Source: Elusimicrobiota bacterium (GTDB lineage: Bacteria; Elusimicrobiota; Elusimicrobia; UBA1565; UBA9628). From it: a stretch of 56,102 nt of DNA. Shown here piece by piece: positions 3,101 to 53,205 of this stretch. Position 1 is the stretch's first letter, and each line of letters starts with the position of its first letter. The notes below the pieces were generated by a model. The model saw nothing but the letters and a program-made list of their open reading frames with translations, did no database searches and had not been told where the DNA came from. A program made the translations under genes and the position numbers. The stretch lies in contig JAYTSX010000239.1 in NCBI GenBank assembly GCA_043745445.1, positions 1-56,102 on the forward strand, in the 5' to 3' direction.

Positions 3101-3195
3101 TCACGGAAAAAGAGAAGCCCGGGCGCTGGTCGACATCAGGGGACCTGGTTAAGAGCTTTACGTACCGTGCAGGAACCGTCAACGATAAACTGACG

Positions 3196-3402: not shown

Positions 3403-3441
3403 TTATATTTAGAGGCACGACCGTCGATGTTTCCGGTTTAA

Positions 3442-6009
<2,568 letters not shown>

Positions 6010-6015
6010 CGAATA

Positions 6016-6045
6016 GGTGTCAGGCTTACCGGTAAGCCTGACACC
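6016..6045. repeat. perfect 30-bp palindrome GGTGTCAGGCTTACC/GGTAAGCCTGACACC; short copy of the repeat at 44182-44273
   Basis: Read directly. Located 7 nt after the gyrB stop, with no T-tract. The core GGTGTCAGGCTTACCGG...CCGGTAAGCCTGACACCAAG is shared with the 44.2-kb locus. Confidence 0.85.
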
Positions 6046-6102
6046 AAGCGTCCAAGTTCGCTATCGTTTGAATTTAAACTTTTAAGTTAATCGGAGAAGA
6101 CC

Positions 6103-10446: not shown

Positions 10447-10448
10447 TT

Positions 10449-17805: not shown

Positions 17806-17808
17806 ATC

Positions 17809-17862
17809 GTGTTTACTCGTGAAAACTCGTTTTTTGACCCAACAGTGTTTACTCGTGAAAAC
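17809..17862. repeat. two identical 18-bp direct repeats GTGTTTACTCGTGAAAAC (17809-17826, 17845-17862), parS-like
   Basis: Read directly; 36-bp periodicity. The first copy lies 3 nt upstream of the parA ATG. On the parA-sense strand it reads GTTTTCACGAGTAAACAC, which resembles the parS consensus TGTTTCACGTGAAACA with a 1-nt insertion and a substitution. Confidence 0.8.
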
Positions 17863-18025
17863 CTTATTAATACTAGCATGTGGCTGCAAAATTGTCAATA
17901 CTACACCATATTGCTGACTGGTATCTTTACAGACTGTTCAGTGCTTTTAAGTTGTGTTTGTTAACATGTTGTTTTAAGGAGGGGGAGGACTGGACAGCTT
18001 TGGGCATTTATCTTACACTCAGCCC

Positions 18026-21093: not shown

Positions 21094-22209
21094 TTAAGGC
21101 TTCCAATCTTTGGGCTTGGGGGCCAAGCCGAACCAGTGGGCGATTGCGGCGGCGATTCTTTCCGATGCGCGTCCGTCCCCGTAAGGGTTTTTGGCGCGGC
21201 TCATTCGGCGGAAAAGAGCGGGATTCCTGAGTAGTTTGCCGGCCCAGAGTTTGAGTTTTTTTGGATCGAGGCCGACAAGGCGACCCGCGCCGCTCGAGAT
21301 GACCTCCGGCCGCTCGGTATTGCGGCGCACGACGAGAATGGGTTTCCGAAGGCAGACCGCCTCTTCTTGAAGGCCGCCGGAGTCCGTGATCAGGAAGGCG
21401 GCTCTGTTGAGCAGGCCCAAAAATTCAGGGTAGGGCTGAGGTTTCAGGAGATGGATTCGGGGATGGCGCAGCATGCGCTTCGCGGTCCCCAGGACGGCTG
21501 GATTGGGGTGCACCGGATAGACGAGCACCAGATTCTCGTGCTTGCGCACGAGATCAAGTAAGGCCGTGTAAATTTTATTGAGCGGCGCCCCGTGTATCTC
21601 TCGGCGGTGCAAGGTCACGAGGACCTCCTTCACGTTGGCGGCGCTCCGCGTCGGGCGAACACGGCCCTTAGCCCAACGCAGCGCGTCCACGACCGTATTG
21701 CCCGTCGTGAGAACCGTCCTGCCATGAAGACCTTCACGGCTGATATTTTTACGCGCCTGCGAAGTGGGGGGGAACACAAGCGAGGAGAGGAGGTCGATGA
21801 ATATCCGATTTTGCTCCTCGGGGAATGGATCATTTAAATTGAATGAGCGCAGGCCGGCCTCGACGTGGGCGACCGGGATGCCGCGTTCGCAGGCGCATAA
21901 CGCGGCCGCCGCGGCGGTCGTCGTGTCTCCCTGCACGACTACCATGTCCGGCTTTAATCGGGCGAGCAGCGGACCCAGGGTCGCGATGACCCGCTTGGCG
22001 ACGGCGTCGGGGGACTGCCCCGGGCGCATCAGGTCGAGGTCAAAATCGGGCTTGAGGGCAAAAAGGGTCAGGACCTGATCGAGGAGCTCCCGGTGCTGGG
22101 CCGTCGCGCACACAAAGGTTTTGAGCCCCTTGCGGCGGCGCAGGGCCGCCACGACGGGAGCGAGCTTGATGGCCTCGGGCCGGGTGCCCATGACCACGAG
22201 GATTTTCAT
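21094..22209 (-). CDS. wecB: UDP-N-acetylglucosamine 2-epimerase (non-hydrolysing type)
   Basis: Track ORF trimmed to the ATG at 22209 (MKILVVMGTRPEAIKLAPVV), giving a 4-nt overlap with the upstream gene stop. HVEAGLRS, DSGGLQEEA motifs. Confidence 0.9.
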   Translation of the reverse strand: MKILVVMGTRPEAIKLAPVVAALRRRKGLKTFVCATAQHRELLDQVLTLFALKPDFDLDLMRPGQSPDAVAKRVIATLGPLLARLKPDMVVVQGDTTTAAAAALCACERGIPVAHVEAGLRSFNLNDPFPEEQNRIFIDLLSSLVFPPTSQARKNISREGLHGRTVLTTGNTVVDALRWAKGRVRPTRSAANVKEVLVTLHRREIHGAPLNKIYTALLDLVRKHENLVLVYPVHPNPAVLGTAKRMLRHPRIHLLKPQPYPEFLGLLNRAAFLITDSGGLQEEAVCLRKPILVVRRNTERPEVISSGAGRLVGLDPKKLKLWAGKLLRNPALFRRMSRAKNPYGDGRASERIAAAIAHWFGLAPKPKDWKP

Positions 22210-23270
22210 TCGCGAGTTTTGCGCAGCCCGCGGCTGACGAAGGTCCAGGCGATGAGCTTGTACAGCAGGCGCATGCCGACGTTGGCGTCCCATTCGTCCT
22301 TGCCGTCCTGGGCGGGGGAAACCTCGTTGAGGTCAAAGCCGATAATTTTTCGTCCTGAGCGCGCGACGAGGCCGATCAGGTGCACGGCCTCCGCGAGCTC
22401 AAGACCGCCGGGGACGGGTGTCCCCGTGTGCGGACAGAGCTTGGGGTCCAGGCCGTCGATGTCGAAGGTGATCCAGACCTGCTGGGGCAGCGCGGCCACG
22501 ATCTCTTCGGCCGTCTTCGTCCACGGCTCGCCGGAAAAACGGCGCTTGGCGAGGTCTCGGTCGTAGAAGACCTTGGCGCGCGGGCCGAGAGCGCGGGTGA
22601 ACTCGTACTCCTGCTCGCAAAAATCACGAATACCGACCTGGACTATCCGGGAGATCTGAGGAATGTTCTCCATCGCGTTGTACATGATAGACGCGTGCGA
22701 CCATGTGAAGCCTTCATAGGCGACGCGCGTGTCGGAGTGAGCGTCGAAATGCAAAAGCCCGAAATCTCCGCATGTCTCAGCGGCGGCGCGAAAGGCGCCG
22801 TAGGGAACGCTGTGGTCCCCGCCGACGATTCCCACAATTTTTCCGGCGGTCATGAGGCCCAGGGCCTCGCGATAGACCCAATCATTCAGCTTTTTACCCA
22901 GCTCGTTCGTCGTTTTAAGCGCCTTCTGTAGATTCTTATTCCCTTCAATACGCCCGCCTTCCTTAATGACCTTCTGCGCGGCCGCCTTCGCGGTCTTGTT
23001 CCAGGCCCTCACTTCCTTCGACTCGGGGCGCATAAAGATTCCCGGCTCGTACGGCCGGTGAACCTCGCCGTCAAACAAGTCGACCTGAGCGCTGGCCTCA
23101 AGGATCGCGGCCGGACCCTTAGAGGTGCCGCCACCGTAAGAGGTCGTCGCCTCCCAGGGAACGGGGATGAGGACGAGCGCCGCGTCCTTTTCCTCATGGG
23201 GGAGGCCGAAAACTCCGGTGTCCTCCCCGGGCGCGGCGTTGGGATCGAAATCGAGGGTGTTTTTGATCAT
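22206..23270 (-). CDS. arginase-family ureohydrolase, agmatinase-like
   Basis: Start at ATG 23270 (MIKNTLDF..) gives an ATGA overlap with the FkbM stop. Mn-ligand motifs are intact: VGGDHSVPYG, HFDAHSDTR, TFDIDGLDP....TGTPVPGG. Confidence 0.85.
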   Translation of the reverse strand: MIKNTLDFDPNAAPGEDTGVFGLPHEEKDAALVLIPVPWEATTSYGGGTSKGPAAILEASAQVDLFDGEVHRPYEPGIFMRPESKEVRAWNKTAKAAAQKVIKEGGRIEGNKNLQKALKTTNELGKKLNDWVYREALGLMTAGKIVGIVGGDHSVPYGAFRAAAETCGDFGLLHFDAHSDTRVAYEGFTWSHASIMYNAMENIPQISRIVQVGIRDFCEQEYEFTRALGPRAKVFYDRDLAKRRFSGEPWTKTAEEIVAALPQQVWITFDIDGLDPKLCPHTGTPVPGGLELAEAVHLIGLVARSGRKIIGFDLNEVSPAQDGKDEWDANVGMRLLYKLIAWTFVSRGLRKTRE

Positions 23271-24100
23271 AATTTTGGCCAGGCGTAGGTCAGTCCGCGC
23301 CAATCGCGCCACTCGTAGCCGAATTGCGTGAGGATGGCGTCGACGCCTTCGGTATCGGGCACGGTGTCGCGTTCGATGGTGATGCGCGGGCGAAAGCGGC
23401 GAATCGTTTCGGCCGCGCCTTTCAATGCGGCGGGCACGACGCCCTCGATGTCGATCTTGAGCAGATCCAAACGCGTCAGGCCGCGCTCGCGGGCGACGGC
23501 GTCGACGGTTTTCATCGGGACGGACACGGAGAGGCCTGAGCCTCGGACCAGGGAGTGATTGATGCCGCGCTCGTGAACGAACAGCTCGACTGTTCCATCG
23601 CGGTCTCCGGCGGCGGCCTGAATGCAGTCAAGCTGGGACAAATTGTTGCGGCGAGCGTTGCCCTCGAGTCGCCGGAAATTATCCGGGTGCGGCTCGACGG
23701 CGATCACTTTTCCCGTCGGGCCGACCAAGGCCGCCGCGCGCGTGGCGAAAATGCCGAGGTTGGCGCCCAGATCTACGACCGTTTGGCCCAGACCGGGGCG
23801 AAAGCCGGTCTCACGCTCATAGTCGCCTTCCGCGACGATTGAATACAACGGGTCAAACGCGGTGTGCAGATCAAGATCGAGCGTGAGGCCGTCGGGAGTC
23901 TCGACCTCCACCGGAAGGTCGGACAGCCCCAGGCGCTTGAGCCAGGTGAGCGCGCGCAGGTGCCGATCGCCCCAGCGCATGAATATGAAAAAAAAGTAAT
24001 AGACGCTGAGATAGGCCAGGCGCCGACCGCGCCCTCCGCGCAAAGAGGCGTGGAAGCGGTAATTCGCGCGGATGTTCCGACACGCCTCGGCGAGGGCCAC
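23267..24100 (-). CDS. FkbM-family SAM-dependent methyltransferase
   Basis: VVDLGANLGIFA....KVIAVEPHPDNFRRL......LDLLKIDIEGVVPAALKGA.....RPRITIE. The GTG start at 24100 is uncertain; an ATG at 23980 is possible. Confidence 0.8.
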   Translation of the reverse strand: MALAEACRNIRANYRFHASLRGGRGRRLAYLSVYYFFFIFMRWGDRHLRALTWLKRLGLSDLPVEVETPDGLTLDLDLHTAFDPLYSIVAEGDYERETGFRPGLGQTVVDLGANLGIFATRAAALVGPTGKVIAVEPHPDNFRRLEGNARRNNLSQLDCIQAAAGDRDGTVELFVHERGINHSLVRGSGLSVSVPMKTVDAVARERGLTRLDLLKIDIEGVVPAALKGAAETIRRFRPRITIERDTVPDTEGVDAILTQFGYEWRDWRGLTYAWPKL

Positions 24101-24127
24101 AGCCGTGATCTTAGTAAATCCGACTCT

Positions 24128-24982
24128 TCAGAAAAAACCGTCGAGGAAGCTCTCGACGAGCAGCGGGAGATCCTCGGAGTAGCCGCCCTCGAGCGCCGCG
24201 AAGCGGGGAAGCTTCGTCTGCGCGAGCAAGGATCCGATGCGCTTGAAGGTCGCGCGGTCGAGCTTGAGCCCGGCGATTGGGTCTTCTTTGTAGGCGTCGA
24301 ACCCGGCGGAAACGGCGAGCAGGTCGGGCTTCGTGTCGAGCAAAAGCCCGAAAACAGGTTCGAAGCTCTCAAGCCAGCGATGTCCGTTGCTTCCCGCCTC
24401 AAGGGGTATGTTCCAGCAGTTGGCGCGGGTATCGAGGCCCGTTCCGGGGTAGAGAGGATACTGATGTAGGGACAGAAACATCGTATTTTCGCGGCCGAGG
24501 ACGAGCTCCTGGGTTCCGTCGCCGTGGTGCACGTCGAAATCGACGATGGCGACCTTTAGCCCGGGCTTGGTCTTTTGTAGCCGCGCCATGGCCAGAGCCA
24601 CATTATTTAAATAGCAGAAGCCGGCGACTTTGTCTTTGCCGGCGTGGTGGCCGGGGGGGCGCATCAGGGAGAAGGCGGGCTCGCCGGCGAGCGCGCAATC
24701 CGCGGCGGAGAGGGCGCCGGACACGCTGATGAGGCTGATGTCGGCGATGCTCGGATAGAACGGGGTGTCCTCGTCCTGGAAAGTCCCTAAGCGGATCGAG
24801 GCGAGGTGGTTCTCGCCGTGAAGGAGAAGAACATCGGTGTCGACGGCCTTGACCGTTGGCCGCTCCGGAGCATGGCCGGCGGCGCGGAGGCGCTCGAAGG
24901 TCTTCTTAACGCGAAACGGCGCCTCGTGGTGTCCCGAGGCGCCGTATTCGGCGGTCTTGAGGTCGGAAAAAACCCGACCCAT
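24128..24982 (-). CDS. histone deacetylase-family amidohydrolase (acetylpolyamine amidohydrolase / AcuC-like)
   Basis: 284 aa. MRPPGHHAG, VDFDVHHGDGTQ, SAGFDAYKEDP, LEGGY. The full Zn/catalytic motif set is present. Confidence 0.88.
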   Translation of the reverse strand: MGRVFSDLKTAEYGASGHHEAPFRVKKTFERLRAAGHAPERPTVKAVDTDVLLLHGENHLASIRLGTFQDEDTPFYPSIADISLISVSGALSAADCALAGEPAFSLMRPPGHHAGKDKVAGFCYLNNVALAMARLQKTKPGLKVAIVDFDVHHGDGTQELVLGRENTMFLSLHQYPLYPGTGLDTRANCWNIPLEAGSNGHRWLESFEPVFGLLLDTKPDLLAVSAGFDAYKEDPIAGLKLDRATFKRIGSLLAQTKLPRFAALEGGYSEDLPLLVESFLDGFF

Positions 24983-24989
24983 AAGATCT

Positions 24990-26048
24990 TTACCGGAGAG
25001 CGGCCGGAATCTTGGCTTTCTCGTCGTTGAGCAGCGCGTTGAAGCGGCGCTCGCGCCGCTTCTTCCAGTTGCCCTTGTGCCAGCCGTAGCCGGCCAGGAC
25101 CGGGAGCGCGATGGTGGCTTCAGAGAAGACCATCTGCTCGTCGGTGACCGCGACCTTGCCCCACGAGCACGCCTCGCGCAAAGTCGAGCCGGAGAGCGCG
25201 CCGTCGCGCTCGTCGGCTACGGTGATTTGCACCGCGTATTTGTGCATGATGGGATCGAGGCCGATCATTTCGGCGCCGACCGTCACGTCCTGAGCGAAGT
25301 TCTTGGGAACGCCGCCGCCGATCATGAGAAGACCGGTGTCGCCGCAGGCGAGCTTCACGCGAACCAGCTCGCGGAAGTCCTTGGCGGAATCGATCGAGGC
25401 GTGGCTCTCAGGGTTGTGCCACTGGTGGTGGAGGAACCCAAAGCCGGCCGAGCAGTCCGAGAAGGCCGGAATGAAGATCGGAACGCCCTTCTTGTACGCG
25501 GACAGCACGATCGAGTCCTTGACCTTGCACTTCTTCACGAGATACTTGCCCATCTCTTCGACGATCTCGCGCGAGGAGTAAGGCTTGGGCTTTAGGTTTC
25601 CGATGATGTCGGAGATGACGTTGTCGCAGGCGCCGAGCTCATCCTCGTCGATGAAGGTGTCGTAGATGCGGTCGATGCGCGCGCCCCGCAGGGCCATGTC
25701 GTCTTCCCACTTGGAGCCCTTGTAATGCTTGTAGCCGAGGGCTTCGAAGAAGTCCTGGTCGACGATGTTGGCGCCGGTGGAGACGATCGCGTCTACCATG
25801 TTGCTTTCGATCATCTGCCAGACGATCTTCTTCAGCCCGGCGGAGAACAAGGAACCGGCCAGGCAGAGAATCACCCCGCATTCCTTGTCGGCGAGCATCT
25901 TGTCGTAGATGTTGCTCGCGCGCGCGAGGTCGCGGGCGGAGAAGGACATCTTCGAGTAGGCTTCGACGAGAGGACGCATGTCGTGCTTGGTGATATCGAT
26001 GTGTTCGATCTCTTCCTTGAGCAGGTCCGACTTCTTGATATTCGCCAT
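24990..26048 (-). CDS. deoxyhypusine synthase-like protein (DHS / homospermidine-synthase-like)
   Basis: Track ORF trimmed to the ATG at 26048 (MANIKKSDLL..). DHS blocks: CLAGSLFSAGLK, VSTGANIVDQD, IGGGVPKNF, and the catalytic-lysine context EACSWGKV. Confidence 0.85.
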   Translation of the reverse strand: MANIKKSDLLKEEIEHIDITKHDMRPLVEAYSKMSFSARDLARASNIYDKMLADKECGVILCLAGSLFSAGLKKIVWQMIESNMVDAIVSTGANIVDQDFFEALGYKHYKGSKWEDDMALRGARIDRIYDTFIDEDELGACDNVISDIIGNLKPKPYSSREIVEEMGKYLVKKCKVKDSIVLSAYKKGVPIFIPAFSDCSAGFGFLHHQWHNPESHASIDSAKDFRELVRVKLACGDTGLLMIGGGVPKNFAQDVTVGAEMIGLDPIMHKYAVQITVADERDGALSGSTLREACSWGKVAVTDEQMVFSEATIALPVLAGYGWHKGNWKKRRERRFNALLNDEKAKIPAALR

Positions 26049-26115
26049 GTTGAGCTTGGGTAATCCTCCGTCGAGAATGTAGGGCGCGTTTATTTTATAA
26101 CATTGCTCGACGACG

Positions 26116-27210
26116 ATGAAGAAATACTTGTTCGGAAATACAATTTTATTTTTACTCCTGGTCCTCGCGGCCGTTCCCGCCGAGGCCAAGCGGCCGAAAA
26201 ATTTCCGGCTGATGTGGAAAAAACCCGTCGCCGCGCAGGCGCCGGAGGAATCCACCAGCACGGTTCAGGGTCCGCCGCTTGTGATGGCCGGCCGTTGGAC
26301 GCCGGAGGTGCGCTCGGCGCTTAATAAATTTCTCGCGGAGCGCGGCAAGGGCGCGCCCGGCTACGACGCGACCAAGCCCCCGGTCGCCGTCCTTCCTTGG
26401 AGCGACGCGCTTGTCGTGGGCGATCCCGCTGAGTTGGTTTTCCTTCGCCTTACGACTCGAGTCGACTTCCATTTCGACGACGACTGGTGGAACATTATTC
26501 CGGTCGCTCATGGGCGCCAGCCCGCGCGCGCGGCCTATAATCACTTTATCTCGCTGTCGAGCGCGGTGTGGCAGTCCCAGCCTGACTACCACCATTATCG
26601 AAAGGAGATTCTCGGAAGCTATCTCGGGCTCTGCCGTGAAGTCGGTCGACGCGAATGCCGCCAGTACCTGATGCGGCTGTGGGCCGGCTGGAAGGAGGGC
26701 GATGCCGTCGAGTACGCGCGGGAGGTCCTCATCGATGAGAAGTCCCGACCCTCGGGTGTCGAGGTTGTCCTCTCCGATGAGGGCGACAAGGCTCCGCTGC
26801 GCATTCGCCGCGGTCTGCGCTTAATCCCGGAGATGCGCGACCTCGCCCAGAAACTCCGGGCGGCCGGCATGGATGTCTGGATCGTCGACGACGTGCCTCA
26901 GCCGTCGCTCTCGGCCGCCGCGGCGGATTACGGCATCGACCCGAGCCGGGTCGTCGGCATTCGCGCAGGTCCCGATGGCGCGCGCTACTCCGCGTCGGTG
27001 CTCAGACCCGTGCCGACCCGCAGCGGCAAGGCGGAGATTATGAAGGCGTCGGTGGGACGGCCCCCCGATTTCGCCCTCGGCCGCGACGCCGCCGACGCCG
27101 ATTTGCTGTCTTACGGTGACGGCTTGCGCGTCATCCTGTCCGGAGACAAAGAACTCGAAGCGAAGGCCAAGGAAAAGGGCTGGCTGCTCCAACCATCCCT
27201 CGCCCATTAG
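26116..27210 (+). CDS. hypothetical secreted protein
   Basis: 364 aa. Clear signal peptide (MKKYLFGNTILFLLLVLAAVPAEA). Distant HAD-IB-like impression only (see rejected). Confidence 0.55.
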   Translation: MKKYLFGNTILFLLLVLAAVPAEAKRPKNFRLMWKKPVAAQAPEESTSTVQGPPLVMAGRWTPEVRSALNKFLAERGKGAPGYDATKPPVAVLPWSDALVVGDPAELVFLRLTTRVDFHFDDDWWNIIPVAHGRQPARAAYNHFISLSSAVWQSQPDYHHYRKEILGSYLGLCREVGRRECRQYLMRLWAGWKEGDAVEYAREVLIDEKSRPSGVEVVLSDEGDKAPLRIRRGLRLIPEMRDLAQKLRAAGMDVWIVDDVPQPSLSAAAADYGIDPSRVVGIRAGPDGARYSASVLRPVPTRSGKAEIMKASVGRPPDFALGRDAADADLLSYGDGLRVILSGDKELEAKAKEKGWLLQPSLAH

Positions 27211-33001: not shown

Positions 33002-33168
33002 GAGTATCCTCCTAGGCCGAGCCGCTGCAGTAGGCTCGGAATATGAGTGTAACGGGACATCTCGTTTTTTGCAAGGGGGGTGGGAGTCAAAAAAATAACA
33101 TGAAGTATGCATAAACTCGCCATTGACCGCCCCGGGTCATCTTTCTTAACCTAACGAGCCAGAGGCAC

Positions 33169-35856
33169 ATGACCGCAATCACAGAGGCCCTTTCGCAGGA
33201 CCAGCCTACACGCGAGCTCCTGGAATTTTTCCTTCCTTTGCACCGCGCCTTCGAGCCCCGCCGAAAAATTCTGCTCGATGCGCGCCGCCGCTCCCTCGAA
33301 CAGGCGCACGCGGGGGACATGCCCGGCTACCGGCCCGAATCAGAAGCGACCGCCGGGGCCTGGCGTCTGGCCGTTCCCCAATGGGCGAGGGATCAGCGCA
33401 ACCAGATCACGGGCCCCGCCGACAATCCAAAGCTGCTCGTTGCGATGTGCAACACGAAGGATCCCGGCTGCATGCCTGATGGCGAGGATTCCATTACAAC
33501 GGATTGGGATCGAGTCCGGGCTGCTCATCGCAACACCGTCGCGGCGATTCAGGGGACCTTGTCCTTCACGGACGCGGCCGGCAAGACCACAGCGATCAAG
33601 CCGAGCAAGCAGGTCATGTTTTACCGACCACGCGGCCTTCATCTCGATGAGACGCATGCGCTCCCGGATGAAACGGTGTCCGGCTCGTTGTTCGACCTCG
33701 CCGCGCTCTTTTACGGGACGGCGGATCAGCGCCGTCAGGCGGTGAAGACCCCCGAGCTCCAGGCGAAGCTTTGTTTCTATATTCCCAAAACCGAATCTTT
33801 CGAGGAGGCTGCCTGGTTCTCCGATGTGATCGCGGCCATGGAAGCGGCGATCGGCATACCCGTGGGCACGACAAAAATCATGTTCCTGATTGAGTCTTTG
33901 CCCGCGGCGTATCAGATCGAGGAAATCCTTTTCACGGCCAAGCGGCATGTGATCGGTCTCAACCTGGGACGATGGGACTACATGGCGAGCCTGCTTCACT
34001 TTAAGCTCGCCGATCCGAAATGGATTCTTCCGGACCGCAATACGATTCCTCACGACATCCCTTTTTTTCAGAACTTGCGAAAACGATTGGTGGACGCGTG
34101 CCACCGGCGCGGCGCGCTCGCCATCGGCGGCATGAGCGCGCTGTTTCCTGATCGCACCGACGCGGCGATCAACACGCGCGCATTGGAAAGGCTCACCGCC
34201 GACAAGAAGAACGAGGCCTCCTTCGGCTTTGACGGCGCCTGGACGGGCCATCCCGATCAGCACGAGGGCGCGATGTCGCAATTCCCGGCTCCGAACCAGC
34301 TCGGCGTCATGCATGCGGACGCAAAACAGCCCGACCTGACTCCTTCGCCTGCCGGTGCCGGCGCGGTGACCGTCGCCGGCACGCGCGACGCGATCCGCAC
34401 CTGCATCGAATATCGCTTTGGCGTGCTGTCCGGCCTCGGCGCGCGCATGATCAAGGGCTACGACAAGACCGGCGCGTTGATCGGCAACTTCATGGAGGAC
34501 CTGGCGACCGACCGCATCTATCGCCTGATGATCGCCCAGCGCGTGCGTCACGGCGTGAAGACGGCTGAAGGCGTCGTTATCACCGCCGCGCTCGTTGAGA
34601 GTTGGTTCAATGAGGAGCTCAATAAGATTTTGGCCGCGAATCCGGAATCCGCCACGGCGGATAAATACAAACGAGCCAGCGAATGGAGCCAGCAGATGAT
34701 TAAGCAAGCCGTCGCCCCCATGCCCGAGGGCATAAAGACCTGGAAGTACCCTCAAGCTGAATTCGCGAAGATGTATGCCCCGCATGAGAAGGTGCATCCT
34801 TCCGACAAGTTGCGCGCCCTGCTTCTGGAGAAATTCGCCAACCGCGTCAAGAACCCGTCGAAGTCCTTTCTGCACACGGCCGGCGCGTATGACGCGATGA
34901 CGGCGTCCCTGCTGACCGACCTCGGCTTTGAGGCGATCTATGCCAGCGGTTGGCAGCTGGCCGTCGCCCATAATATGTACCCCGACATCGGCATCTACCC
35001 CTCGCATCAGATGGTGGAGCTCGCGCGCGAGCTCATGCGCGGCATCGAGGGCACCCGCGACCGTCACTTCTACGACGACGGCGGTCAGATTCTCAACACG
35101 CCCCCGATCTTCGCCGACATTGAGGCGGGATTCGGCGGTCCGACCCAGACGTTCACGCTCACCCGCGAGTTGATCAGAGCCGGAGTGGGCGGCGTCCACT
35201 TGGAAGACCAGGATCCGGCGGAGCGGACCTGCGGCCACATCGTCGCGCATCACGGCGTGAAGCGCGAGAAGGTCCTCGTGCCGACGAACAAGTGGATCGA
35301 GAAGCTCATCGCGGTGAAAGCCGCCGCCCAGGCGTCGGAGACCAACCTCGTCGTCATCGCGCGCACGGACGCCGTCGACGGCGCGGTGCCCGGCGGCCGA
35401 ACCGGAAGCGTTCAGCACGCGATCGACCGCGCGCTCGAGGCCGCCTCGCTCGGCGTCGATGTGATCTGGCCCGAGTTCAACAACACGGACCTCGAGGGAC
35501 CGCAGGAGTTCGCCGAGGGCGTGCACAAGTACTACCCGAACCAGATGCTCGGCTTCAACCTCTCGCCCTCTCTCCATTGGGGCAAAGCCAAGCAGGAAGG
35601 CAAGCTGATCACCAACGAGATGCTAGGCAAGATGGGCTTCACGCTCCAGTTCTCGACCTTGCTCGCCTTCCGCACGATCGGGATGGCGCTTGAGAACTCA
35701 CTGAAGGGCTTCCACACGCGCGGCATCGATGCACTGGCGGACCTGCAGCTCTCCGAGATCGGTCACCCCAACGGTGAGCCGCGATCCCGCATGCACCAGA
35801 AGTTCGCGGGCACCAACCGCTGGCTCACACTCGAGAAGGTCAGCAAGGGCGTCTAA
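33169..35856 (+). CDS. bifunctional malate synthase (N-terminal, aa 1 to about 515) / isocitrate lyase (C-terminal, aa about 560-895) fusion protein
   Basis: 895 aa, uninterrupted. MS-A signature KRHVIGLNLGRWDYM (nt 33940-33984), FGFDGAWTGHP, MEDLATDRIYR. ICL blocks YASGWQ, MYPD.GIYP, ADIEAGFGG, GVHLEDQ, TCGH, ARTDA, LSPSLHW. Confidence 0.9.
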   Translation: MTAITEALSQDQPTRELLEFFLPLHRAFEPRRKILLDARRRSLEQAHAGDMPGYRPESEATAGAWRLAVPQWARDQRNQITGPADNPKLLVAMCNTKDPGCMPDGEDSITTDWDRVRAAHRNTVAAIQGTLSFTDAAGKTTAIKPSKQVMFYRPRGLHLDETHALPDETVSGSLFDLAALFYGTADQRRQAVKTPELQAKLCFYIPKTESFEEAAWFSDVIAAMEAAIGIPVGTTKIMFLIESLPAAYQIEEILFTAKRHVIGLNLGRWDYMASLLHFKLADPKWILPDRNTIPHDIPFFQNLRKRLVDACHRRGALAIGGMSALFPDRTDAAINTRALERLTADKKNEASFGFDGAWTGHPDQHEGAMSQFPAPNQLGVMHADAKQPDLTPSPAGAGAVTVAGTRDAIRTCIEYRFGVLSGLGARMIKGYDKTGALIGNFMEDLATDRIYRLMIAQRVRHGVKTAEGVVITAALVESWFNEELNKILAANPESATADKYKRASEWSQQMIKQAVAPMPEGIKTWKYPQAEFAKMYAPHEKVHPSDKLRALLLEKFANRVKNPSKSFLHTAGAYDAMTASLLTDLGFEAIYASGWQLAVAHNMYPDIGIYPSHQMVELARELMRGIEGTRDRHFYDDGGQILNTPPIFADIEAGFGGPTQTFTLTRELIRAGVGGVHLEDQDPAERTCGHIVAHHGVKREKVLVPTNKWIEKLIAVKAAAQASETNLVVIARTDAVDGAVPGGRTGSVQHAIDRALEAASLGVDVIWPEFNNTDLEGPQEFAEGVHKYYPNQMLGFNLSPSLHWGKAKQEGKLITNEMLGKMGFTLQFSTLLAFRTIGMALENSLKGFHTRGIDALADLQLSEIGHPNGEPRSRMHQKFAGTNRWLTLEKVSKGV

Positions 35857-35881: not shown

Positions 35882-35915
35882 CGGCCGCCGGGGAAACCCG
35901 GCGGCCGCTTCTTTG
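35882..35915. terminator. bidirectional intrinsic terminator between convergent genes
   Basis: CGGCCGCCGGG-gaaa-CCCGGCGGCCG stem-loop, flanked by an A-tract (CAAAAAAAGA) upstream and CTTCTTTGG downstream. Confidence 0.7.
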
Positions 35916-35927
35916 GGGTCAGACCCC

Positions 35928-36689
35928 TTAGTTTTCGGTGTGGGCGTCGCGCAGGCTGAGCACGATATCGCGCCAGATGTCGTCTTCCTGGCCACCGGAG
36001 AAGAAGTACATCTGGTCCTGGCCGAGGACGAAGGTCTCTGCGCGCGGGAAAGGGGCAAGGACCGTGACTGCGACGCCGGGCAGGCTGGCGATCTGCATGT
36101 TCTTCATCGCGAATTTTTCACCCACGCCCTTGTACTTGCCCGCGGCCATGCGCGAGAGACTCGCGATCCCGGTCGGGTTATTCGGGAACTGGGTCGGGAG
36201 CACCTCGAGCTTGACGATGCCGAGCTGCCCGAAGAGACCCTCGTTGGCGAAATTCGTCGGATCGGTCCCCTTCTTGCAGAAATAGATGATTTGGTGCTGT
36301 TTGCTCGAGTCGGTAAAATCTGAAATGCCGACATAATCCTTGGGCAGGCGCACGATCCAGCCCGCGTGACCGATAAAGGCGGACTCGCCGGAGGGGTTCT
36401 CGGTGTTACCCTCGGTCGAGCTGAGCTTTGGCTTTTGCGATAGAGAGTAAAAGCCGATCAGGAGAATGATCGCCACCCCGACGAAAAGGAACGCGACCGC
36501 GGCCATGCTCGTTTTCATCTTCGGCTTCGCCGAAGTCCGCACCGTCGTCGGTGTGCGCAGGGCCGCCGCCAGCGAATCGGTGAAGTCCGCCTCAGAGACG
36601 CCCTCTTCGGTCAGCTGTTTTCGCAGGGTTTCTACAGGAAAGCTCGAGAGGTGATCCCGAAGATACTGGGCGACATCGGGGCGCAGCAT
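35928..36689 (-). CDS. hypothetical single-pass membrane protein
   Basis: Track ORF trimmed to the ATG at 36689, 1 nt after the rfbA stop. Reads MLRPDVAQYLRDHL.., with one TM (MAAVAFLFVGVAIILLIGFYSL). Confidence 0.55.
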   Translation of the reverse strand: MLRPDVAQYLRDHLSSFPVETLRKQLTEEGVSEADFTDSLAAALRTPTTVRTSAKPKMKTSMAAVAFLFVGVAIILLIGFYSLSQKPKLSSTEGNTENPSGESAFIGHAGWIVRLPKDYVGISDFTDSSKQHQIIYFCKKGTDPTNFANEGLFGQLGIVKLEVLPTQFPNNPTGIASLSRMAAGKYKGVGEKFAMKNMQIASLPGVAVTVLAPFPRAETFVLGQDQMYFFSGGQEDDIWRDIVLSLRDAHTEN

Positions 36690-36690
36690 C

Positions 36691-37578
36691 TCAGCCCCGC
36701 CCTTCGGCGACGCGCAGCAGGTAGCGGCCGTATTCGTTTTTTCGCATCGGCTCGGCGAGCGCGCGCAATTGTTTGGCGTTGATGTAGCCGAGGTTGAAGG
36801 CGATCTCCTCGAGGCAGGAGACCTGCAGGGCCTGGCGTTCCTCGATGACCTGGATGAAGGTCGAGGCTTGAAGGAGAGCTTCGTGCGTGCCGGTATCGAG
36901 CCAGGCAATGCCGCGGCCCATCTTCTGCACATGCAATTTATTTTTCTTGAGATAAGCCTTATTGACATCGGTGATCTCGAGCTCGCCGCGAGGGGAGGGC
37001 TTCAGGTTCGCGGCGATGTCGAGCACCGAGTTGTCGTAAAAGTAGAGGCCCGTGACGGCGTAGTTGGACTTGGGTTTAGAAGGCTTTTCAGCCAGGCTCA
37101 CGGCACGGCCCTTCGCGTCGAACTCAACTACTCCATAGCGCTCGGGGTCCTTGACGTGGTAGGCGAAGACGGTGGCGCCGGACTTCTGCGCCGCGGCGGC
37201 GTGGAGATGCTCGGGCAGGCCGTGGCCGTAAAAAATGTTGTCACCGAGAACGAGGGCGACGCGGTCGCTGCCGACGAAATCGGCGCCGATGATGAAGGCC
37301 TGGGCGAGGCCTTCGGGATTGGGTTGGATCGCATAGGAAATGTTGAGCCCCGCCCAGGAGCCGTCACCGAGCAGTCGGACGAAGGATGGCCGGTCTTCGG
37401 GGGTCGTGATGATGAGGATGTCGCGTATGCCGGCGAGCATGAGCGTCGAGAGGGGGTAGTAGATCATCGGCTTGTCGTAGACGGGGACAAGTTGCTTGCT
37501 GACCGCGCGGGTCACGGGATAAAGCCGGCTTCCCGAGCCGCCGGCGAGCACGATGCCCTTTAAGCGCTGACTAGCCAT
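36691..37578 (-). CDS. rfbA: glucose-1-phosphate thymidylyltransferase
   Basis: 295 aa. [50 protein letters not shown] is the canonical RmlA N-terminus. Confidence 0.95.
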
Positions 37579-47922: not shown

Positions 47923-50900
47923 ATGGCCCCGAATCCCCTCCGGGGAGCCCTCGCCTTCCTCTTAGTTGCCATCCTGGCGCTGCCCGCGCGCCCGGTGGAA
48001 GTTTCCGTACCCGGCGAAGCGGGCAAGTCGGGCACGGGGCAGGGCCAGGTCGGCACAGTCGGCGGGTTGACGCCCGGTGTCAGCGGCGGCGTCTCCGTCG
48101 TGCCGAGCCTTGGTCTCGGGCTTGCTCCCGCGCTTGGGCCCAATGTCGCGCCGGCGCCGATCGCCCAGCCAGCCGCTGCAAATCCGGCCATCAGCCCCAT
48201 CGATGTCGGGCATCTTAACTTCGGCGAGCGCGTCAAAAAAACGCTCGCACCGCATGGGGAGGAAATCTGGCAGCCGTCCGAGACCCCCGCAAAGCCGGCC
48301 CCCGCCAAGCCCGCCGCGCAGAAAAAGTTGTTCGGCAAGCCGTCGCCGCCCGCGATCGACGCGCCCTCGTACTCCGCCGCGTCGGCCGGAGAGATCGACG
48401 CCCAATTAGTCGGCGCGGCGAAAGCCGCGATCAAGTCGGGCGTGGCGCCCTCGGACGCCAGGCTCAAGAAGTTGTACGACGGTTCCGACGATTGGAACGG
48501 AACTGAAGAGACCGGCGTTTTTCCAGCCGTAGATCCGTCCGCGGCGCACCCGACGGGGCTGACGCCGGCGAGCAAAACGGCCGCGGTTTCGGGATTTAAG
48601 ATTACGCCGCCGTCTCCAAAGGGCGGGTCAGCGAAGAACTGGATCAAGAGCGTTTTTGGCTCGGCGACGGGAGCGGCGTCGGAGGCCATGATTTCGCTCG
48701 GGTCGGTGTTCTCCAAACCGAAAGCCGAAATTCCTGAAGCCGCCACGCTCAAAGTGATCGAGCCCAAGACCGTGCCCTGGGTCAAGCCCGAGCGCGGCGA
48801 CACGCTGCTTGTCCGTTCGGGACGCGGGACGAGCTACGAGGCGCTCGGCTATCGCGTGCTGTACGCGCCTCCCGTCTCGCCGGATTTGGCCGTGAGGAAG
48901 GCGAGTGATGAGGGCGTGAGCGTGCGCCTCGCGCGTGGGCGGGACGCGGCCGAAACAGCGACCTTGCGCGCGCGCTTTGCGATCTTCAACGGCCTGATCG
49001 AATCAAATTTCGCCGCGCTCGAACTGATCGCGCAAAGTTCGTCGAAGATGACGGTGAAAACCGCGCGGGCCGTTCAGGGCCATGTCCTGGCTATGGCCGA
49101 GGCCTATGCGGGTCTCGGTGAGGGTGACGGCGTGCGCGAGGCGGACGCGCTCGGCGTGAAGCTCGAAGTCCAGCGCCTGGGCGTGAAGATCGAAGCCGCG
49201 GTCCGCGGCCTCTCCGACTCCGATCTTCTGCCACCGGCGGCTGTCGAGCTCGTGATGCCGATCGACAAGCGCTCGCTGCACAAGTATCTCAACTATCTTC
49301 ACCAGCAGGCGCTTGAGGCCGTCGGCAAGTCCAACACCTCCTCACCCGCGAACTTGACCGTGCGCATGGGTTCGTGGACCAATGAAAAAGCCGTCTCGCT
49401 CGTGGACCTCTCCGAGCATCCGCTCGTCAAGGGCACGCGCGTCGTCTCGCCGGGGTTCAAGGCTTTGCTTGAGGCGTTTTCGCGCTCCAAGGATACACCG
49501 AAAGGTTCGCTCATCATGCAGGACCATCAGTTTTGGGGCCACTTTCAACTCGGCCATCACTCCGCCGAGATTTACGCCAGCTTCCTGCAGCCTGACGAGG
49601 GCGGCATGATTCGCGTGCGCTACCAGGAGTGGGGCTCCGGGTACGACAACCAGACTCGCCTCTATTACGTCGGGCGTCTTCTTCACAAGGCGGGCTTTCA
49701 TGTCGATCAGAAAAACGGATTTTTGACGGCCGTGATCGATAAGGACCACGCCTCGCAGACCGTGGACCAGATGACCGACACCTTCGCGCTCGTCGTGCAG
49801 GCACTGCACGCGACGGTGGGGGTGGACTTCGCTTTGCCGCTGCTCGTCAAAGGGGCAAAGTCGAGCGAGGAGGTGGGCCGGCGCATCGACGATTGGGTCG
49901 ACACGGTGATCGGCGAGGGCACCTTGCCTTTTTATGTCCATGACGATCATGACGCGATGGTCGCAGGCTGGCAGAAATACCGGGCCGAGCAGAGGCCGCG
50001 CGCGATCCTGCGCGCGGCGCTCGATAAGAATCTCGACGACTTGGGCCTGCCGGCAATTCCCGCGGACGAGAGGCTCGGCCAACGCACGATCGACCGCTTC
50101 GTCAACCAGCCGATCGAGGCCGCCATCGCGCGCGGGCAACTCCTCCTCGCGTCCGATGGTCGTGTCGCCCGTAACCCGATCTATGATCCTTTCGCGGCCT
50201 TGGCCAAAGCCTTCGCCGGCGGGGCGGTCGCCGGTGCGCGCCTGGCGGAGGTTGTTTCTTCGCTCGATCCCGCGCTGTTTCAATACGAGACGATCGGCAC
50301 GCTCGGCGCGTTGACAGTGGAGCGCGCCCAACGCCGGCTCGATCCCAACGGCTGGGTGACGATCTACGCTCTGCGCGATCCGAAGTCAGGACAGATCGGT
50401 CTGGCTCGCGCGGAGTTGCTCACGCTCGAGCCGGGAGTCAAGGGGCTCACGCTTTCGCCGGCCGCGCTGTTCTCGATCTTGGCGGCCCAGGGCCATCCCA
50501 TCGCCTCATTTGAACCCTCGGAAGTTCCCCCCGGCGCCGCCCATTTTCAGACGCTGCTGCGCGCCACGCCGCCCGCGCGTGCTGCCTTCGGCCGCAGCTT
50601 CTCAGGCATGGCCGCGAGCCCGGGCCACGGGCGCACCTTGCTCGCGCGGATCACCTACGACAAGGCCAAGGCGGCGGGGGGCGGCTCTATCTTCGTCGCG
50701 GCCTACACCACGCCCGACGACCTCGACGCGATCCGCGCTTCGAAAGCGGTGATCACGACCTCGGGAGGACTGCTCAGCCACGCCGCGATCACGACGCGCG
50801 AGATGGGAATTCCCGCCGCGATTCTGCCCGGCGTCGATTGGACGGGCGGCGCCGCGTCCTTAACCACCTTCGACTTGAGCGCGCCGATCCGCGCCGGGCC

Positions 50901-53205
50901 GCTGACCGCGCGCCTCGCCAAGCCCGCGGCGCCGGTCGCGCTGCTTGAAGGCGAGGTGGTGCGTCTTGACCCCGCGACGGGCGTCGTCGAAATATTCCCG
51001 CCGGGAGCCAGCGCCGCCCTCCTCGACGCGGCGGGCGCGCTCGAACGCTTTGACGCCACAGGAGATGCCGGGAACATGGCGCAATGGCTGAAGCTGCGGC
51101 TCGATACACAGGCCCTTCAGCCCGAACAGAAAACGATCCTCGTGCGCGAGACGCTGACGGGCCTTTTCTCCCGCGCTCTGAACGATGCCCGCGCCGTCCC
51201 CGCGCTGGCGCGCGCGCTCTCCGTCATCCCCGGCCGGCAGTACAAGATCGGCCTCATCGCCCAGGACGCGCTCGATACGCGTTTTACCGCCGAGCTTGAG
51301 GACGCTGTCGCTGATCTTAAGTCGCGCCGTGGCCTCGTCGACGAGTCACTAGCAACGGAGTCCGTCGAGCGCCTGTGGCGTGAGGCGGAAACTCGCGCCC
51401 GCGGACTGCGCGCGATCGGCGTGGAGCTGGCGCGCCCCAAGCTCGAGCTCGCCACCTATGAAATTTCGCTCGCGGGCTTGAAGGCCGACGCGAAGGAGCG
51501 TCATGAGAAGCTGTTGGCCGAGGAGATGGCCGAACTGCAGACCCACGCCCGGGTGTTTCCCGCCGCGACGGTCGAGGCTCTGCCACGCATTAAGTCGGCT
51601 ATCGCCAAGGCTCGTCGCCGGGGCATGAATGCGGACATGATTGGCCAGTGGGAGGAGCAGGCTCAGCGTCTTGAGCGGCTTCACCGCGTGACCATGGAAG
51701 CGCGCGCTCCGACCGTTCTCCCGTTGGCTTCAATTATGGATGTGGACGTGCCGTGGGTCGGCGGCAAGGCGGCAAAGCTCGGGGAGATCGCGGCCGTCGT
51801 GCGCGCGGCCGGCGGCGAGGTCACACCGGGCTTTGCGCTCACTATCCACGCCTACCGGCGCTTTCTCAAGGAAACCGGAATTGCCGAGCGCCTGGAGGCG
51901 CTCGGAGCCGATGCACGCCTGACGCCCGAGCAGCGCTCGGAGCGCGCGCGACGCCTGATTCTCGACGCGAAGCTGAGCCCAAAAACGGGCGTGGGCCAGG
52001 AAATTCTCGCGGGTCTCGCCGCCCAGGGTCTGGATAAAACCCCGCTGGCCGTGCGCTCCTCGGCCGTGGACGAAGACGGCGCTGAGGCCGCCTTCGCAGG
52101 CGCGGGCGACACTCACCTTTATGTGGACCCGTCGGAATTACTTGAGCACGTCAAAGATGTTTGGGCTTCGCTCTGGAACCCGCGCGCGCTTCTCTACCGC
52201 GAGACGCGCGGGCTGTCCACCGCAAACCTGGCCCAGGCCGTCGTGATCCAGGCGATGGTCGCCTCCGAGGTCTCCGGCGTCGCGTTCACCCAGGATCCGG
52301 TCTCCGGCAGCTCGGGGCGTGTGATCGTCAACGGCGCGTTCGGCCTTGGCGAGGGCATCGTGTCCGGACGCGTGGCGCCCGATCAGTATGTTCTCGCCAA
52401 GACGTCCGGGCTTGAGATTCTTCCACCCATGATTTCTGATAAGAAGCTCGCCATTGTGCGCGGTAAGAACGGCAAGGGCACGATCGAGCACAAGATGCCT
52501 CCCGAGTGGCGCCGCCGCCGCTCGATGTCTCCGGCGAAGCTCAAGCTTCTTTCGGATGTCTCGGTGGCTCTCGAGCGGCACTTCGGCTACGCGCTCGACA
52601 TCGAGTTCGGTTTTGTCGGCGACAAGCTTTATATTCTGCAGTCGCGCTCGGTCACGAGCAACGGCGCCGAGGCGCAAGCGCCGGTGCCGGCGATCCCGCA
52701 GGGCTCGGCGATGAAGCCGGCGGCCGCGCCCAAGCCCAAGCGCCTTATGTTCGTCTGCACCGGCAACACCTGCCGCTCGCCGATGGCGGCGCATTTGGCG
52801 CGGGAGAAGCTCTCTCGCCGCGGCCGGCCCGATATCGAGGTGGTCTCGCGCGGTTTACGGGTTCGGGTCGAAGGCCAGGACATGAACTCGAAGGCCGTGT
52901 CGGCGCTCGAGGCCCAGGGCGTGGACGCCGAGGGCCATCGCGCGACTTCGCTCACCGGTCCCGAGATCGCGGGAACGAATCTTATTCTCACGATGACCGA
53001 GGAGCAGGCGAAGGAGGTGCTCTGGCGCTACCCTGAGGCCAAGGGGAAGGTGTTCTCGCTCGCCGAGTACGCCAAGCGCGGCGGCGATGTCGCCGATCCT
53101 TACGGCGGTGACGACGCCGCGTACCAGGCGGCGGCCACCGTCATCGGCGACGCGCTCGACGCCTTCGTGGAGCGAATTCCTGCCGGCGCGACCGCGAGGC
53201 CTTAG
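47923..53205 (+). CDS. 1760-aa multidomain protein: N-terminal hydrophobic anchor/signal, P/A/G-rich region, about 600 aa unknown, PEP-utilizer swivel phosphohistidine domain, helical linker, PPDK_N-type ATP-grasp domain, LMW phosphotyrosine phosphatase
   Basis: Uninterrupted ORF. Swivel domain aa about 893-1027 (GGLLSHAAITTREMGIPAAI). PPDK_N aa about 1266-1578 (VGGKAAKLGE, LAVRSSAVDEDG, VWASLWNPRALLYR, SGVAFTQDP, GLGEGIVSG, LYILQSR). LMW-PTP aa about 1607-1752 (LMFVCTGNTCRSPMA, DPYGG). Confidence 0.85.
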   Translation: MAPNPLRGALAFLLVAILALPARPVEVSVPGEAGKSGTGQGQVGTVGGLTPGVSGGVSVVPSLGLGLAPALGPNVAPAPIAQPAAANPAISPIDVGHLNFGERVKKTLAPHGEEIWQPSETPAKPAPAKPAAQKKLFGKPSPPAIDAPSYSAASAGEIDAQLVGAAKAAIKSGVAPSDARLKKLYDGSDDWNGTEETGVFPAVDPSAAHPTGLTPASKTAAVSGFKITPPSPKGGSAKNWIKSVFGSATGAASEAMISLGSVFSKPKAEIPEAATLKVIEPKTVPWVKPERGDTLLVRSGRGTSYEALGYRVLYAPPVSPDLAVRKASDEGVSVRLARGRDAAETATLRARFAIFNGLIESNFAALELIAQSSSKMTVKTARAVQGHVLAMAEAYAGLGEGDGVREADALGVKLEVQRLGVKIEAAVRGLSDSDLLPPAAVELVMPIDKRSLHKYLNYLHQQALEAVGKSNTSSPANLTVRMGSWTNEKAVSLVDLSEHPLVKGTRVVSPGFKALLEAFSRSKDTPKGSLIMQDHQFWGHFQLGHHSAEIYASFLQPDEGGMIRVRYQEWGSGYDNQTRLYYVGRLLHKAGFHVDQKNGFLTAVIDKDHASQTVDQMTDTFALVVQALHATVGVDFALPLLVKGAKSSEEVGRRIDDWVDTVIGEGTLPFYVHDDHDAMVAGWQKYRAEQRPRAILRAALDKNLDDLGLPAIPADERLGQRTIDRFVNQPIEAAIARGQLLLASDGRVARNPIYDPFAALAKAFAGGAVAGARLAEVVSSLDPALFQYETIGTLGALTVERAQRRLDPNGWVTIYALRDPKSGQIGLARAELLTLEPGVKGLTLSPAALFSILAAQGHPIASFEPSEVPPGAAHFQTLLRATPPARAAFGRSFSGMAASPGHGRTLLARITYDKAKAAGGGSIFVAAYTTPDDLDAIRASKAVITTSGGLLSHAAITTREMGIPAAILPGVDWTGGAASLTTFDLSAPIRAGPLTARLAKPAAPVALLEGEVVRLDPATGVVEIFPPGASAALLDAAGALERFDATGDAGNMAQWLKLRLDTQALQPEQKTILVRETLTGLFSRALNDARAVPALARALSVIPGRQYKIGLIAQDALDTRFTAELEDAVADLKSRRGLVDESLATESVERLWREAETRARGLRAIGVELARPKLELATYEISLAGLKADAKERHEKLLAEEMAELQTHARVFPAATVEALPRIKSAIAKARRRGMNADMIGQWEEQAQRLERLHRVTMEARAPTVLPLASIMDVDVPWVGGKAAKLGEIAAVVRAAGGEVTPGFALTIHAYRRFLKETGIAERLEALGADARLTPEQRSERARRLILDAKLSPKTGVGQEILAGLAAQGLDKTPLAVRSSAVDEDGAEAAFAGAGDTHLYVDPSELLEHVKDVWASLWNPRALLYRETRGLSTANLAQAVVIQAMVASEVSGVAFTQDPVSGSSGRVIVNGAFGLGEGIVSGRVAPDQYVLAKTSGLEILPPMISDKKLAIVRGKNGKGTIEHKMPPEWRRRRSMSPAKLKLLSDVSVALERHFGYALDIEFGFVGDKLYILQSRSVTSNGAEAQAPVPAIPQGSAMKPAAAPKPKRLMFVCTGNTCRSPMAAHLAREKLSRRGRPDIEVVSRGLRVRVEGQDMNSKAVSALEAQGVDAEGHRATSLTGPEIAGTNLILTMTEEQAKEVLWRYPEAKGKVFSLAEYAKRGGDVADPYGGDDAAYQAAATVIGDALDAFVERIPAGATARP

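Follow-up and report, generated by a model that had tools for sequence, protein, structure and literature searches.

Proteins that carry both glyoxylate-shunt enzymes, isocitrate lyase (ICL) as well as malate synthase (MS), in a single chain have been described in eukaryotes and in bacteria. The ICL–MS order is documented in nematodes (PMC1630690) and the MS–ICL order in Euglena, Acanthamoeba, three chrysophytes and a prokinetoplastid (PMC1630690, PMC8219788; Nakazawa 2005 as cited in PMC8219788). An ICL/MS fusion was reported from Anaeromyxobacter in 2006 (PMC1630690), and in 2016 it was listed again among fusions in which the intermediate, here glyoxylate, is unstable or reactive (PMC4921024). 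Here, we describe a fused MS–ICL gene from an Elusimicrobiota bacterium (contig JAYTSX010000239.1 of assembly GCA_043745445.1), found in a stretch of 56,102 nt (positions 1–56,102), hereafter called the window. We consider it quite likely that this gene encodes a bifunctional glyoxylate-shunt enzyme, and that the fusion arose once, in a sediment and groundwater clade of Elusimicrobiota, from an adjacent gene pair. The gene is a new and independently derived case of a recurrent fusion, and not the first in bacteria.

The original prediction, made from the sequence, had described an 895-amino-acid (aa) open reading frame (ORF) with the motifs of both enzymes, and every motif that it quoted was found in the ORF at 33,169–35,856. 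The gene and its parts are as follows:

33,169–35,856, + strand: whole fused gene, 895 codons plus stop, with an ATG start and a single uninterrupted ORF
33,161–33,165, + strand: Shine–Dalgarno-like AGAGG, 3 nt 5′ of the ATG, from direct reading of the sequence
33,169–34,704, + strand: malate synthase A half, aa 1–512, consisting of MS_N, TIM barrel and C-terminal lid
34,459–34,488, + strand: 10-residue clade-specific insertion YDKTGALIGN, aa 431–440, directly before MEDLATDRIYR
34,705–34,737, + strand: fusion linker QAVAPMPEGIK, Q513–K523, from comparison of the junction with split loci
34,738–35,853, + strand: isocitrate lyase-type half, aa 524–895, from comparing its motifs with those of E. 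coli AceA and of canonical ICLs
35,215–35,271, + strand: atypical catalytic loop PAERTCGHIVAHHGVKREK, aa 683–701, with RT for the canonical KK before Cys688 and a 7-residue insertion
35,882–35,907, no strand assigned: bidirectional intrinsic-terminator-like hairpin of 11 G–C pairs, with T-tracts on both strands

The N-terminus of the protein aligned from residue 1 with orthologues P0002–P0005. In the MS half, KRHVIGLNLGRWDYM occupies aa 258–272 and MEDLATDRIYR aa 442–452, while the ICL half contains YASGWQ (aa 591–596), MYPD (603–606), ADIEAGFGG (649–657), GVHLEDQ (675–681), TCGH (687–690), ARTDA (731–735) and SPSLHW (799–804). All Pfam matches exceeded their gathering cut-offs: MS_N at aa 14–57 (24.5 bits; cut-off 23.5), MS_TIM-barrel at aa 150–382 (200.7 bits; cut-off 26.4) and MS_C at aa 401–512 (41.9 bits; cut-off 23.1) in the MS half, and ICL/PEP_mutase (PF00463) at aa 569–893 (138.1 bits; cut-off 26) in the ICL half. 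A sequence search of the PDB matched residues 14–489 to E. coli malate synthase A (3cuz, E = 1.8e-78), and residues 524–885 to many isocitrate lyases (E about 1e-45).

We considered the possibility that the single ORF was an artefact, in which two real genes had been joined by a missing base or in a chimeric contig. A search of 5.8 billion proteins returned ≈47 full-length fused clusters of 875–922 aa and 73–92% identity (clustered at 90% identity; sources NCBI, ENA, JGI and Logan assemblies), in which all named members were labelled Elusimicrobia or Elusimicrobiota and came from metagenome bins. An explicit stop-to-stop check showed one uninterrupted ORF over both halves in six GTDB species representatives (L007–L012), so that the same fusion is present in related genomes and metagenome-assembled genomes. 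Positions 33,100–35,681 were reproduced in per-run Logan assemblies of four sediment metagenomes. The Logan contigs spanning 34,479–35,046 had zero gaps and zero differences at the junction, with a word depth of 8–12, in agreement with the earlier reading that no stop or frameshift separates the halves. (A joint from 34,387 to 35,388, labelled as skipping 1000 and seen in two runs, was disregarded as a 21-letter match of an unrelated contig.) The ratio of non-synonymous to synonymous substitution rates (dN/dS), calculated by the Nei–Gojobori method for the window gene against L007–L012, was 0.09–0.16 for the MS half and 0.05–0.16 for the ICL half, and was 0.06–0.08 for the 46 codons about the junction, counting only comparisons in which dS was unsaturated. 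The fused gene is conserved under purifying selection throughout, in MS, junction and ICL. Furthermore, the stop, spacer and ICL start of the ancestral pair are wholly absent, and not merely out of frame. Thus, the recurrence of the fusion, the gap-free junction contigs and the low dN/dS together exclude an assembly artefact.

Interruptions of the gene in two related assemblies would be in keeping with such an artefact. CP096137.1, a complete 3.8-Mb Elusimicrobiota genome, contains an orthologue (L002 5965–8626) with two single-base frameshifts, one of them in a run of C in the linker, and the locus was called as a 556-aa MS and a 245-aa ICL fragment. It is syntenic with the window, with TatD, TPR/HEAT, a small ORF, MS..ICL, RfbA and M3 peptidase. 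In L014, the fused gene has one frameshift. The translation nevertheless stays 76–93% identical across the frames in both L002 (three frames) and L014, and we read the interruptions as sequencing errors or very recent decay. The break in CP096137.1 probably reflects a homopolymer error from long-read sequencing, or else a pseudogene of very recent origin. A genuine split orthologue was ruled out for this genome, since the frameshifts are two single-base events and the protein is fully conserved over three frames. An artefact in the window gene therefore retains next to no probability, and is effectively refuted.

The nearest non-fused relatives of the fused gene have MS and ICL as adjacent, co-directional genes in the same order, with MS 65–69% and ICL 71–75% identical. 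The two genes are separated as follows:

L003 and L004: 57 nt between MS and ICL
L005: 36 nt between MS and ICL
L006 (= L017): 2 nt between MS and ICL
L013: MS and ICL parted by a single in-frame stop

In the split relatives, MS terminates in ...MI(H/R)RGEF-stop and ICL starts ≈20 residues 5′ of a conserved TW(T/S)YPAEE.AKLYAP. Comparison of the junction with L003, L005, L006 and L013 showed that in the fused proteins QAVAPMPEGIK connects ...EWSQQMIK to TWKYPQAEFAKMYAP. This linker is conserved among the fused orthologues and stands in place of the MS C-terminus, the spacer and about 20 N-terminal ICL codons, indicating a deletion that ran from the last few codons of MS, through its stop and the spacer, and included the start of ICL. 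As everything from aa 524 (TWKYPQAEFAKMYAP...) belongs to the N-terminal segment of ICL itself, the novel linker amounts to only ≈11 residues (nt 34,705–34,737), and the length of about 40 aa given in the original prediction was an overestimate.

Separate neighbour-joining trees with 200 bootstraps were calculated for MS (62 taxa) and ICL (43 taxa); among the other fusions, they covered that of Strongyloides and three from bacteria (P0125, P0135 and P0145). In the MS tree, the 16 sampled fused sequences were monophyletic (68%) and nested in a 100% Elusimicrobiota-type clade, the remaining members of which were split. In the ICL tree, the fused sequences and three ICL-only copies formed a 75% clade within a 100% Elusimicrobiota-type clade. 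The trees show one origin of the fusion, nested within split sequences, and because the nearest relatives are split pairs from the same phylum, it arose within Elusimicrobiota. In an exhaustive HMMER scan of 1.84 billion representatives at 50% identity, the Elusimicrobiota fusion collapsed to one representative, P0022, and no protein with both halves and more than 37% identity was found outside the Elusimicrobiota clade. In tblastn, a single in-frame high-scoring segment pair (query ≈13–894; MS 46–51% and canonical ICL 29–35% identical) was also obtained at about 35 loci of Acidobacteriota, Eisenbacteria, Chloroflexota and Planctomycetota, which were considered as fusions. The stop-to-stop check revealed an in-frame stop between the two genes in each of them, and they are ordinary split operons.

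Derivatives of the fused gene were also seen. At the syntenic locus L016 5941–7206, the MS part is deleted, and what remains of the C-terminal end of MS and of the linker, still recognizable, precedes ICL. P0066 (L092 3001–4572) consists of MS only, with a fusion-type C-terminus (...ASRWSQDLIQELCVK), and has a downstream Zn-ribbon gene in common with the fused P0048, which suggests that the ICL half was lost. L015/P0056 (L015 3142–4665) has an internal deletion of MS residues ≈129–464. Several fusion carriers have an additional, stand-alone compact ICL paralogue of 77–80% identity. These paralogues (L024 6013–7137, from the same bin as L010; L030 4067–5185; and L091 5001–6167, or P0315, at 1.01 Mb of CP096137.1) lie far from the fusion locus and have no adjoining MS gene. 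Stand-alone genes of the compact ICL subfamily are present in Elusimicrobiota, Polarisedimenticolia and Gemmatimonadota.

Among the described fusions, the bifunctional enzyme of Euglena gracilis has the same order, with MS N-terminal and ICL C-terminal, and presumably carries out the same two-step chemistry. However, the Euglena-type fusions are eukaryotic and mitochondrial, whereas the Elusimicrobiota ICL half is compact, with 372 aa, and has RTCGH in its loop. The nematode protein (C. elegans ICL-1; Strongyloides P0126 and P0270) likewise has both glyoxylate-cycle enzymes in one chain, but in the reversed order (ICL 18–430, MS 443–962) and with a canonical KKCGH ICL; it is 31–32% identical to the window protein in each half, and branches apart in both trees. 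Common descent with the described fusion types was not seen, since the nematode fusion lies elsewhere in the trees and the sister sequences are split; for Euglena, Acanthamoeba and Anaeromyxobacter this comparison was only indirect. The independent origin that had been proposed as one of two possibilities was thus upheld by the separate trees of both halves, in which the nematode and the other bacterial fusions branch elsewhere. The second possibility, a relevance to the origin of the eukaryotic fusions, did not hold up: the nearest relatives are split bacterial pairs and no outside fusion exceeds 37% identity, which also indicates, by an indirect test, an origin independent of the Euglena type.

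In bacteria, the fusion of the same two enzymes in Anaeromyxobacter dehalogenans and Anaeromyxobacter sp. Fw109-5 (fig|404589.10.peg.3099) belongs to a different phylum, Myxococcota, and was compared by its description. P0125 (986 aa), P0135 (1062 aa) and P0145 (996 aa) have the same MS-to-ICL order, but are only 33–37% identical, and their ICL halves are of canonical full length with KKCGH or KRCGH. Their contigs are of a compact, prokaryote type with 33–47% G+C and have sigma-70, ThrRS, ABC permease and PEPCK genes as neighbours. They branch separately in the trees and therefore represent further independent bacterial fusions. Other long fusion proteins retrieved were P0159, P0184, P0211, P0224, P0225, P0247, P0261 and P0266. 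Some of the contigs had additional features. On L090, a low-GC contig, the fused P0145 at 5001–7991 is followed 2.3 kb downstream by a separate MS gene with a separate ICL gene immediately after it (10305–12991). Beside the fused P0135, L087 1–4950 encodes two more very large proteins, one of 2767 aa (MaoC/AMP-binding/acyl-CoA dehydrogenase) and one of 1340 aa, a methylmalonyl-CoA mutase that has a B12-binding domain; such large multidomain proteins suggest a genome prone to metabolic gene fusion. Members of the Elusimicrobiota fusion family were already in NCBI under generic names. With these, the three additional bacterial fusions and the Anaeromyxobacter fusion of the 2006 and 2016 reports, the novelty implied for a bacterial fusion was overstated. 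A literature search on the glyoxylate shunt in Elusimicrobiota found nothing relevant; one text containing the words Elusimicrobia, glyoxylate and isocitrate lyase was left aside.

The split systems, that is, the aceB-aceA(-aceK) operon of E. coli and the pairs in Acidobacteriota, Chloroflexota and sister Elusimicrobiota, have the same gene order and the same enzymes as the fused gene, but on two polypeptides. In the split pairs, MS still ends in ...RGEF and ICL has a start of its own. The fused gene has neither aceK nor iclR as a neighbour. With the sister Elusimicrobiota pairs, the fused protein shares both the compact type of ICL and the insertion in MS.

The MS half is 36% identical to E. 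coli AceB over residues 14–490. R153, E242, D270 and D444 correspond in the alignment to E. coli R166, E250, D278 and D447, and none of the four varies among the 28 Elusimicrobiota-type sequences (16 fused and 12 split). In the E. coli enzyme, we take D447 to be the catalytic base, R166 the enolate-stabilizing Arg, and E250 and D278 the Mg2+ ligands. The YDKTGALIGN insertion was present in all fused and split Elusimicrobiota-type MS; E. coli AceB, the remaining MS sequences and the other fusions lacked it. With a TIGR01344 score below the curated cut-off (given below), the MS half is a divergent malate synthase A subfamily.

In the ICL half, the key residues are S593, G594, W595, D606, D650, E652, E679, C688, H690, R732, N797, S799, S801 and T830. 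YASGWQ, MYPD, ADIEAGFGG, HLEDQ, ARTDA, NLSPSLHW and QFSTLLA were conserved in all 16 fused sequences, and Cys688 and His690 were present and invariant among them. The motifs that bind Mg2+ and substrate and those that discriminate against methylisocitrate lyase (SGW, YPD, DxE, EDQ, RTD, NxSPS and QFxT) are all kept. Both active sites are intact, as the original prediction would have it: all catalytic and ligand-binding positions checked in the alignments of the two halves are retained. An AlphaFold2 model of the ICL half, built from a 67-sequence alignment, had a predicted local distance difference test (pLDDT) score of 90.7 and a predicted TM score of 0.89, with the loop insertion as the only internal low-confidence segment. 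In Foldseek, the top 50 PDB matches of this model were all isocitrate lyases (TM 0.72–0.78). In a full-length model, the MS half had a pLDDT of about 90, and the ICL half and linker were of low confidence.

Several observations weigh against a bifunctional shunt enzyme with a single fusion event behind it. Both the MS and the ICL subfamily are without a biochemically characterized member. The two halves fall below the curated NCBIfam equivalog cut-offs: TIGR01344 (malate synthase A, EC 2.3.3.9) gave 346.9 bits against 594.5, TIGR01346 (isocitrate lyase, EC 4.1.3.1) 176.5–181 against 275.9, and NF011645 (isocitrate lyase) 195–198 against 562, where a canonical ICL from a neighbouring phylum (L018) had 763 for comparison. 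The generic database names of family members result from these sub-threshold scores. The ICL active-site signature, which we take to be the PROSITE-type pattern K-[KR]-C-G-H-[LMQR], is not matched by R686-T687-C688-G689-H690-I691, in which Cys and His are kept and both lysines are replaced, and a 7-residue insertion follows CGH, within the mobile catalytic loop. The full-length model is uninformative on inter-domain contacts or packing. Bootstrap values for the fused clade were only moderate (68–75%), in neighbour-joining trees. An aquifer metatranscriptome yielded short contigs ≈90% alike on each half, none of them crossing the junction. Finally, the half-loss derivatives and stand-alone ICL paralogues indicate that the fused state is not obligatory.

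The scores below threshold in both halves and the atypical catalytic loop, RTCGH with the 7-aa insertion, could also be understood if the ICL-like half cleaved a different 2-hydroxy-acid and the MS-like half condensed the resulting oxo-acid, in a pathway other than the glyoxylate shunt. A segment of ≈20 residues after ARTDA is missing from the ICL half, as it is from a “Chloroflexi-type” group of short sequences, a sister group that stands beside MS and has clearly non-ICL motifs; both points favour another substrate. (In this group, seen in L033, L037, L048, L049, L055 and L074 from Chloroflexota, Dehalococcoidia and Planctomycetota bins, the short ICL-like ORF follows directly after MS; its motifs are YFSGYS, GTTDMD, VDMDGGYGN, KRCGH and NYSSSFKW, and it is the sister of the Elusimicrobiota-type ICL with 100% bootstrap.) However, SGW, the R of ARTDA, NxSxS and the T of QFxT, presumably the glyoxylate and succinate contacts in solved ICLs, are all kept. 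So are the Trp (SGW) and Phe/Thr (QFxT) positions, which we take to separate ICL from methylisocitrate lyase by excluding the methyl group of methylisocitrate. ICL profiles scored about twice as high on the ICL half as those of methylisocitrate lyase (PrpB), and every one of its best fold matches is an ICL. The active site of MS shows no change, and malate synthase uses glyoxylate, which only ICL-type cleavage would supply. The tight linkage of the compact ICL to MS in the split relatives likewise supports glyoxylate as the shared intermediate. We therefore regard a different substrate as improbable.

In the shunt enzyme that we favour, the ICL-type C-terminal domain would cleave isocitrate to succinate and glyoxylate, and the malate synthase A N-terminal domain would condense this glyoxylate with acetyl-CoA to malate; both activities are predicted from the conserved residues. 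The ancestor was probably an adjacent aceB-like and aceA-like pair, in which a small deletion took out the stop codon of MS together with the short spacer and ≈20 codons at the start of ICL, so that the 11-residue linker remained. The benefit would be a fixed 1:1 co-expression and a proximity of the active sites that may restrict how much reactive glyoxylate escapes. If it behaves like canonical ICLs, the protein could assemble as an ICL-core tetramer bearing four MS lobes, with the ICL C-terminal tail free.

The fusion might do more than ensure co-expression, either by channelling glyoxylate or by letting MS-bound acetyl-CoA activate ICL, with the clade-specific insertions taking part. The short, conserved linker under purifying selection would fit such a role, as would the location of the insertions, beside the catalytic Asp of MS and inside the catalytic loop of ICL. 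Precedents exist: the ICL activity of the Euglena MS–ICL enzyme is reportedly activated by acetyl-CoA, and the structures of M. tuberculosis ICL2 with acetyl-CoA (PDB 6edz and 6ee1) were among the Foldseek matches. However, both insertions also occur in the split relatives, and thus predate the fusion and are not adaptations to it; RTCGH, the loop insertion and the post-ARTDA loss are common to split and stand-alone relatives, and hence are older than the fusion. Half-loss derivatives and stand-alone ICL paralogues persist, and the AlphaFold2 model has no confident interface. On balance, we find a function of this kind rather unlikely. A broader proposal, which we hold to be unlikely, is that the Elusimicrobiota-type pair is a functionally distinct, co-evolved variant of the shunt, in which the separate enzymes already interact physically, and that the fusion fixed a complex that channels glyoxylate or couples ICL to acetyl-CoA binding. 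The features of this variant would be the compact RTCGH ICL, its 7-aa loop insertion, the lack of the post-ARTDA segment and the 10-aa insertion in MS.

The neighbours of the fused gene are a small divergent ORF, a TPR/HEAT protein, TatD, an aldehyde dehydrogenase, an RfbA-type nucleotidyltransferase and tRNA-Met. Examination of the neighbouring ORFs confirmed that there is no aceK- or iclR-like gene near it in the window. The hairpin at 35,882–35,907, just past the stop, stands between the fused gene and a convergent downstream ORF, bearing out the suggestion that the gene has its own terminator, and the gene appears to be monocistronic. The downstream ORF of 346 aa (35,928–36,968, − strand) did not match any Pfam family. 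Its listed extent includes an overlap of 278 nt with the RfbA-like gene (36,691–37,578, − strand), so that its real start is probably an internal Met.

The window is an origin-proximal chromosomal segment with dnaA, dnaN, gyrB, gyrA, serS and parAB. The dnaA, dnaN, gyrB and gyrA genes are at 447–8616 (+ strand) and parA/parB at 16,088–17,898; the position of the dnaA–gyrA block at the start of the window places the fused gene ≈33 kb from the probable replication origin. Polyamine-related genes occur in two groups ≈10 kb apart. The first (10,863–12,646, + strand) has an S-adenosylmethionine decarboxylase matching Pfam PF01536, which we take to be the eukaryote-type family, beside a spermidine synthase, and the second (22,206–26,261, − strand) encodes arginase-family, histone-deacetylase-like and deoxyhypusine-synthase-like proteins. 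An ORF of 1760 aa at 47,923–53,205 (+ strand) has ≈900 N-terminal residues without a Pfam match, followed by a phosphoenolpyruvate-utilizing mobile domain (aa 921–966) and a PPDK_N nucleotide-binding domain (aa 1278–1588), and ends in a low-molecular-weight phosphotyrosine phosphatase domain (aa 1609–1748).

The Elusimicrobiota fusion has no detectable bearing on the eukaryotic fusions, and leaves the understanding of the pathway unchanged. It brings to attention a compact, uncharacterized ICL subfamily with an altered catalytic loop, for which the automated label is only “isocitrate lyase/PEP mutase family protein”. With such generic labelling, the glyoxylate shunt may be under-called in genomes of Elusimicrobiota, Gemmatimonadota and some Acidobacteriota. 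Unusually, the public data preserve an evolutionary series, from adjacent genes through a single in-frame stop to the fused gene and later half-loss derivatives, which makes the fusion a clean natural system in which to study its benefit, be it stoichiometry, glyoxylate channelling or regulation. Most useful are this series, which leads from split genes to the fused gene and back to split ones, and the divergent catalytic loop of the ICL.

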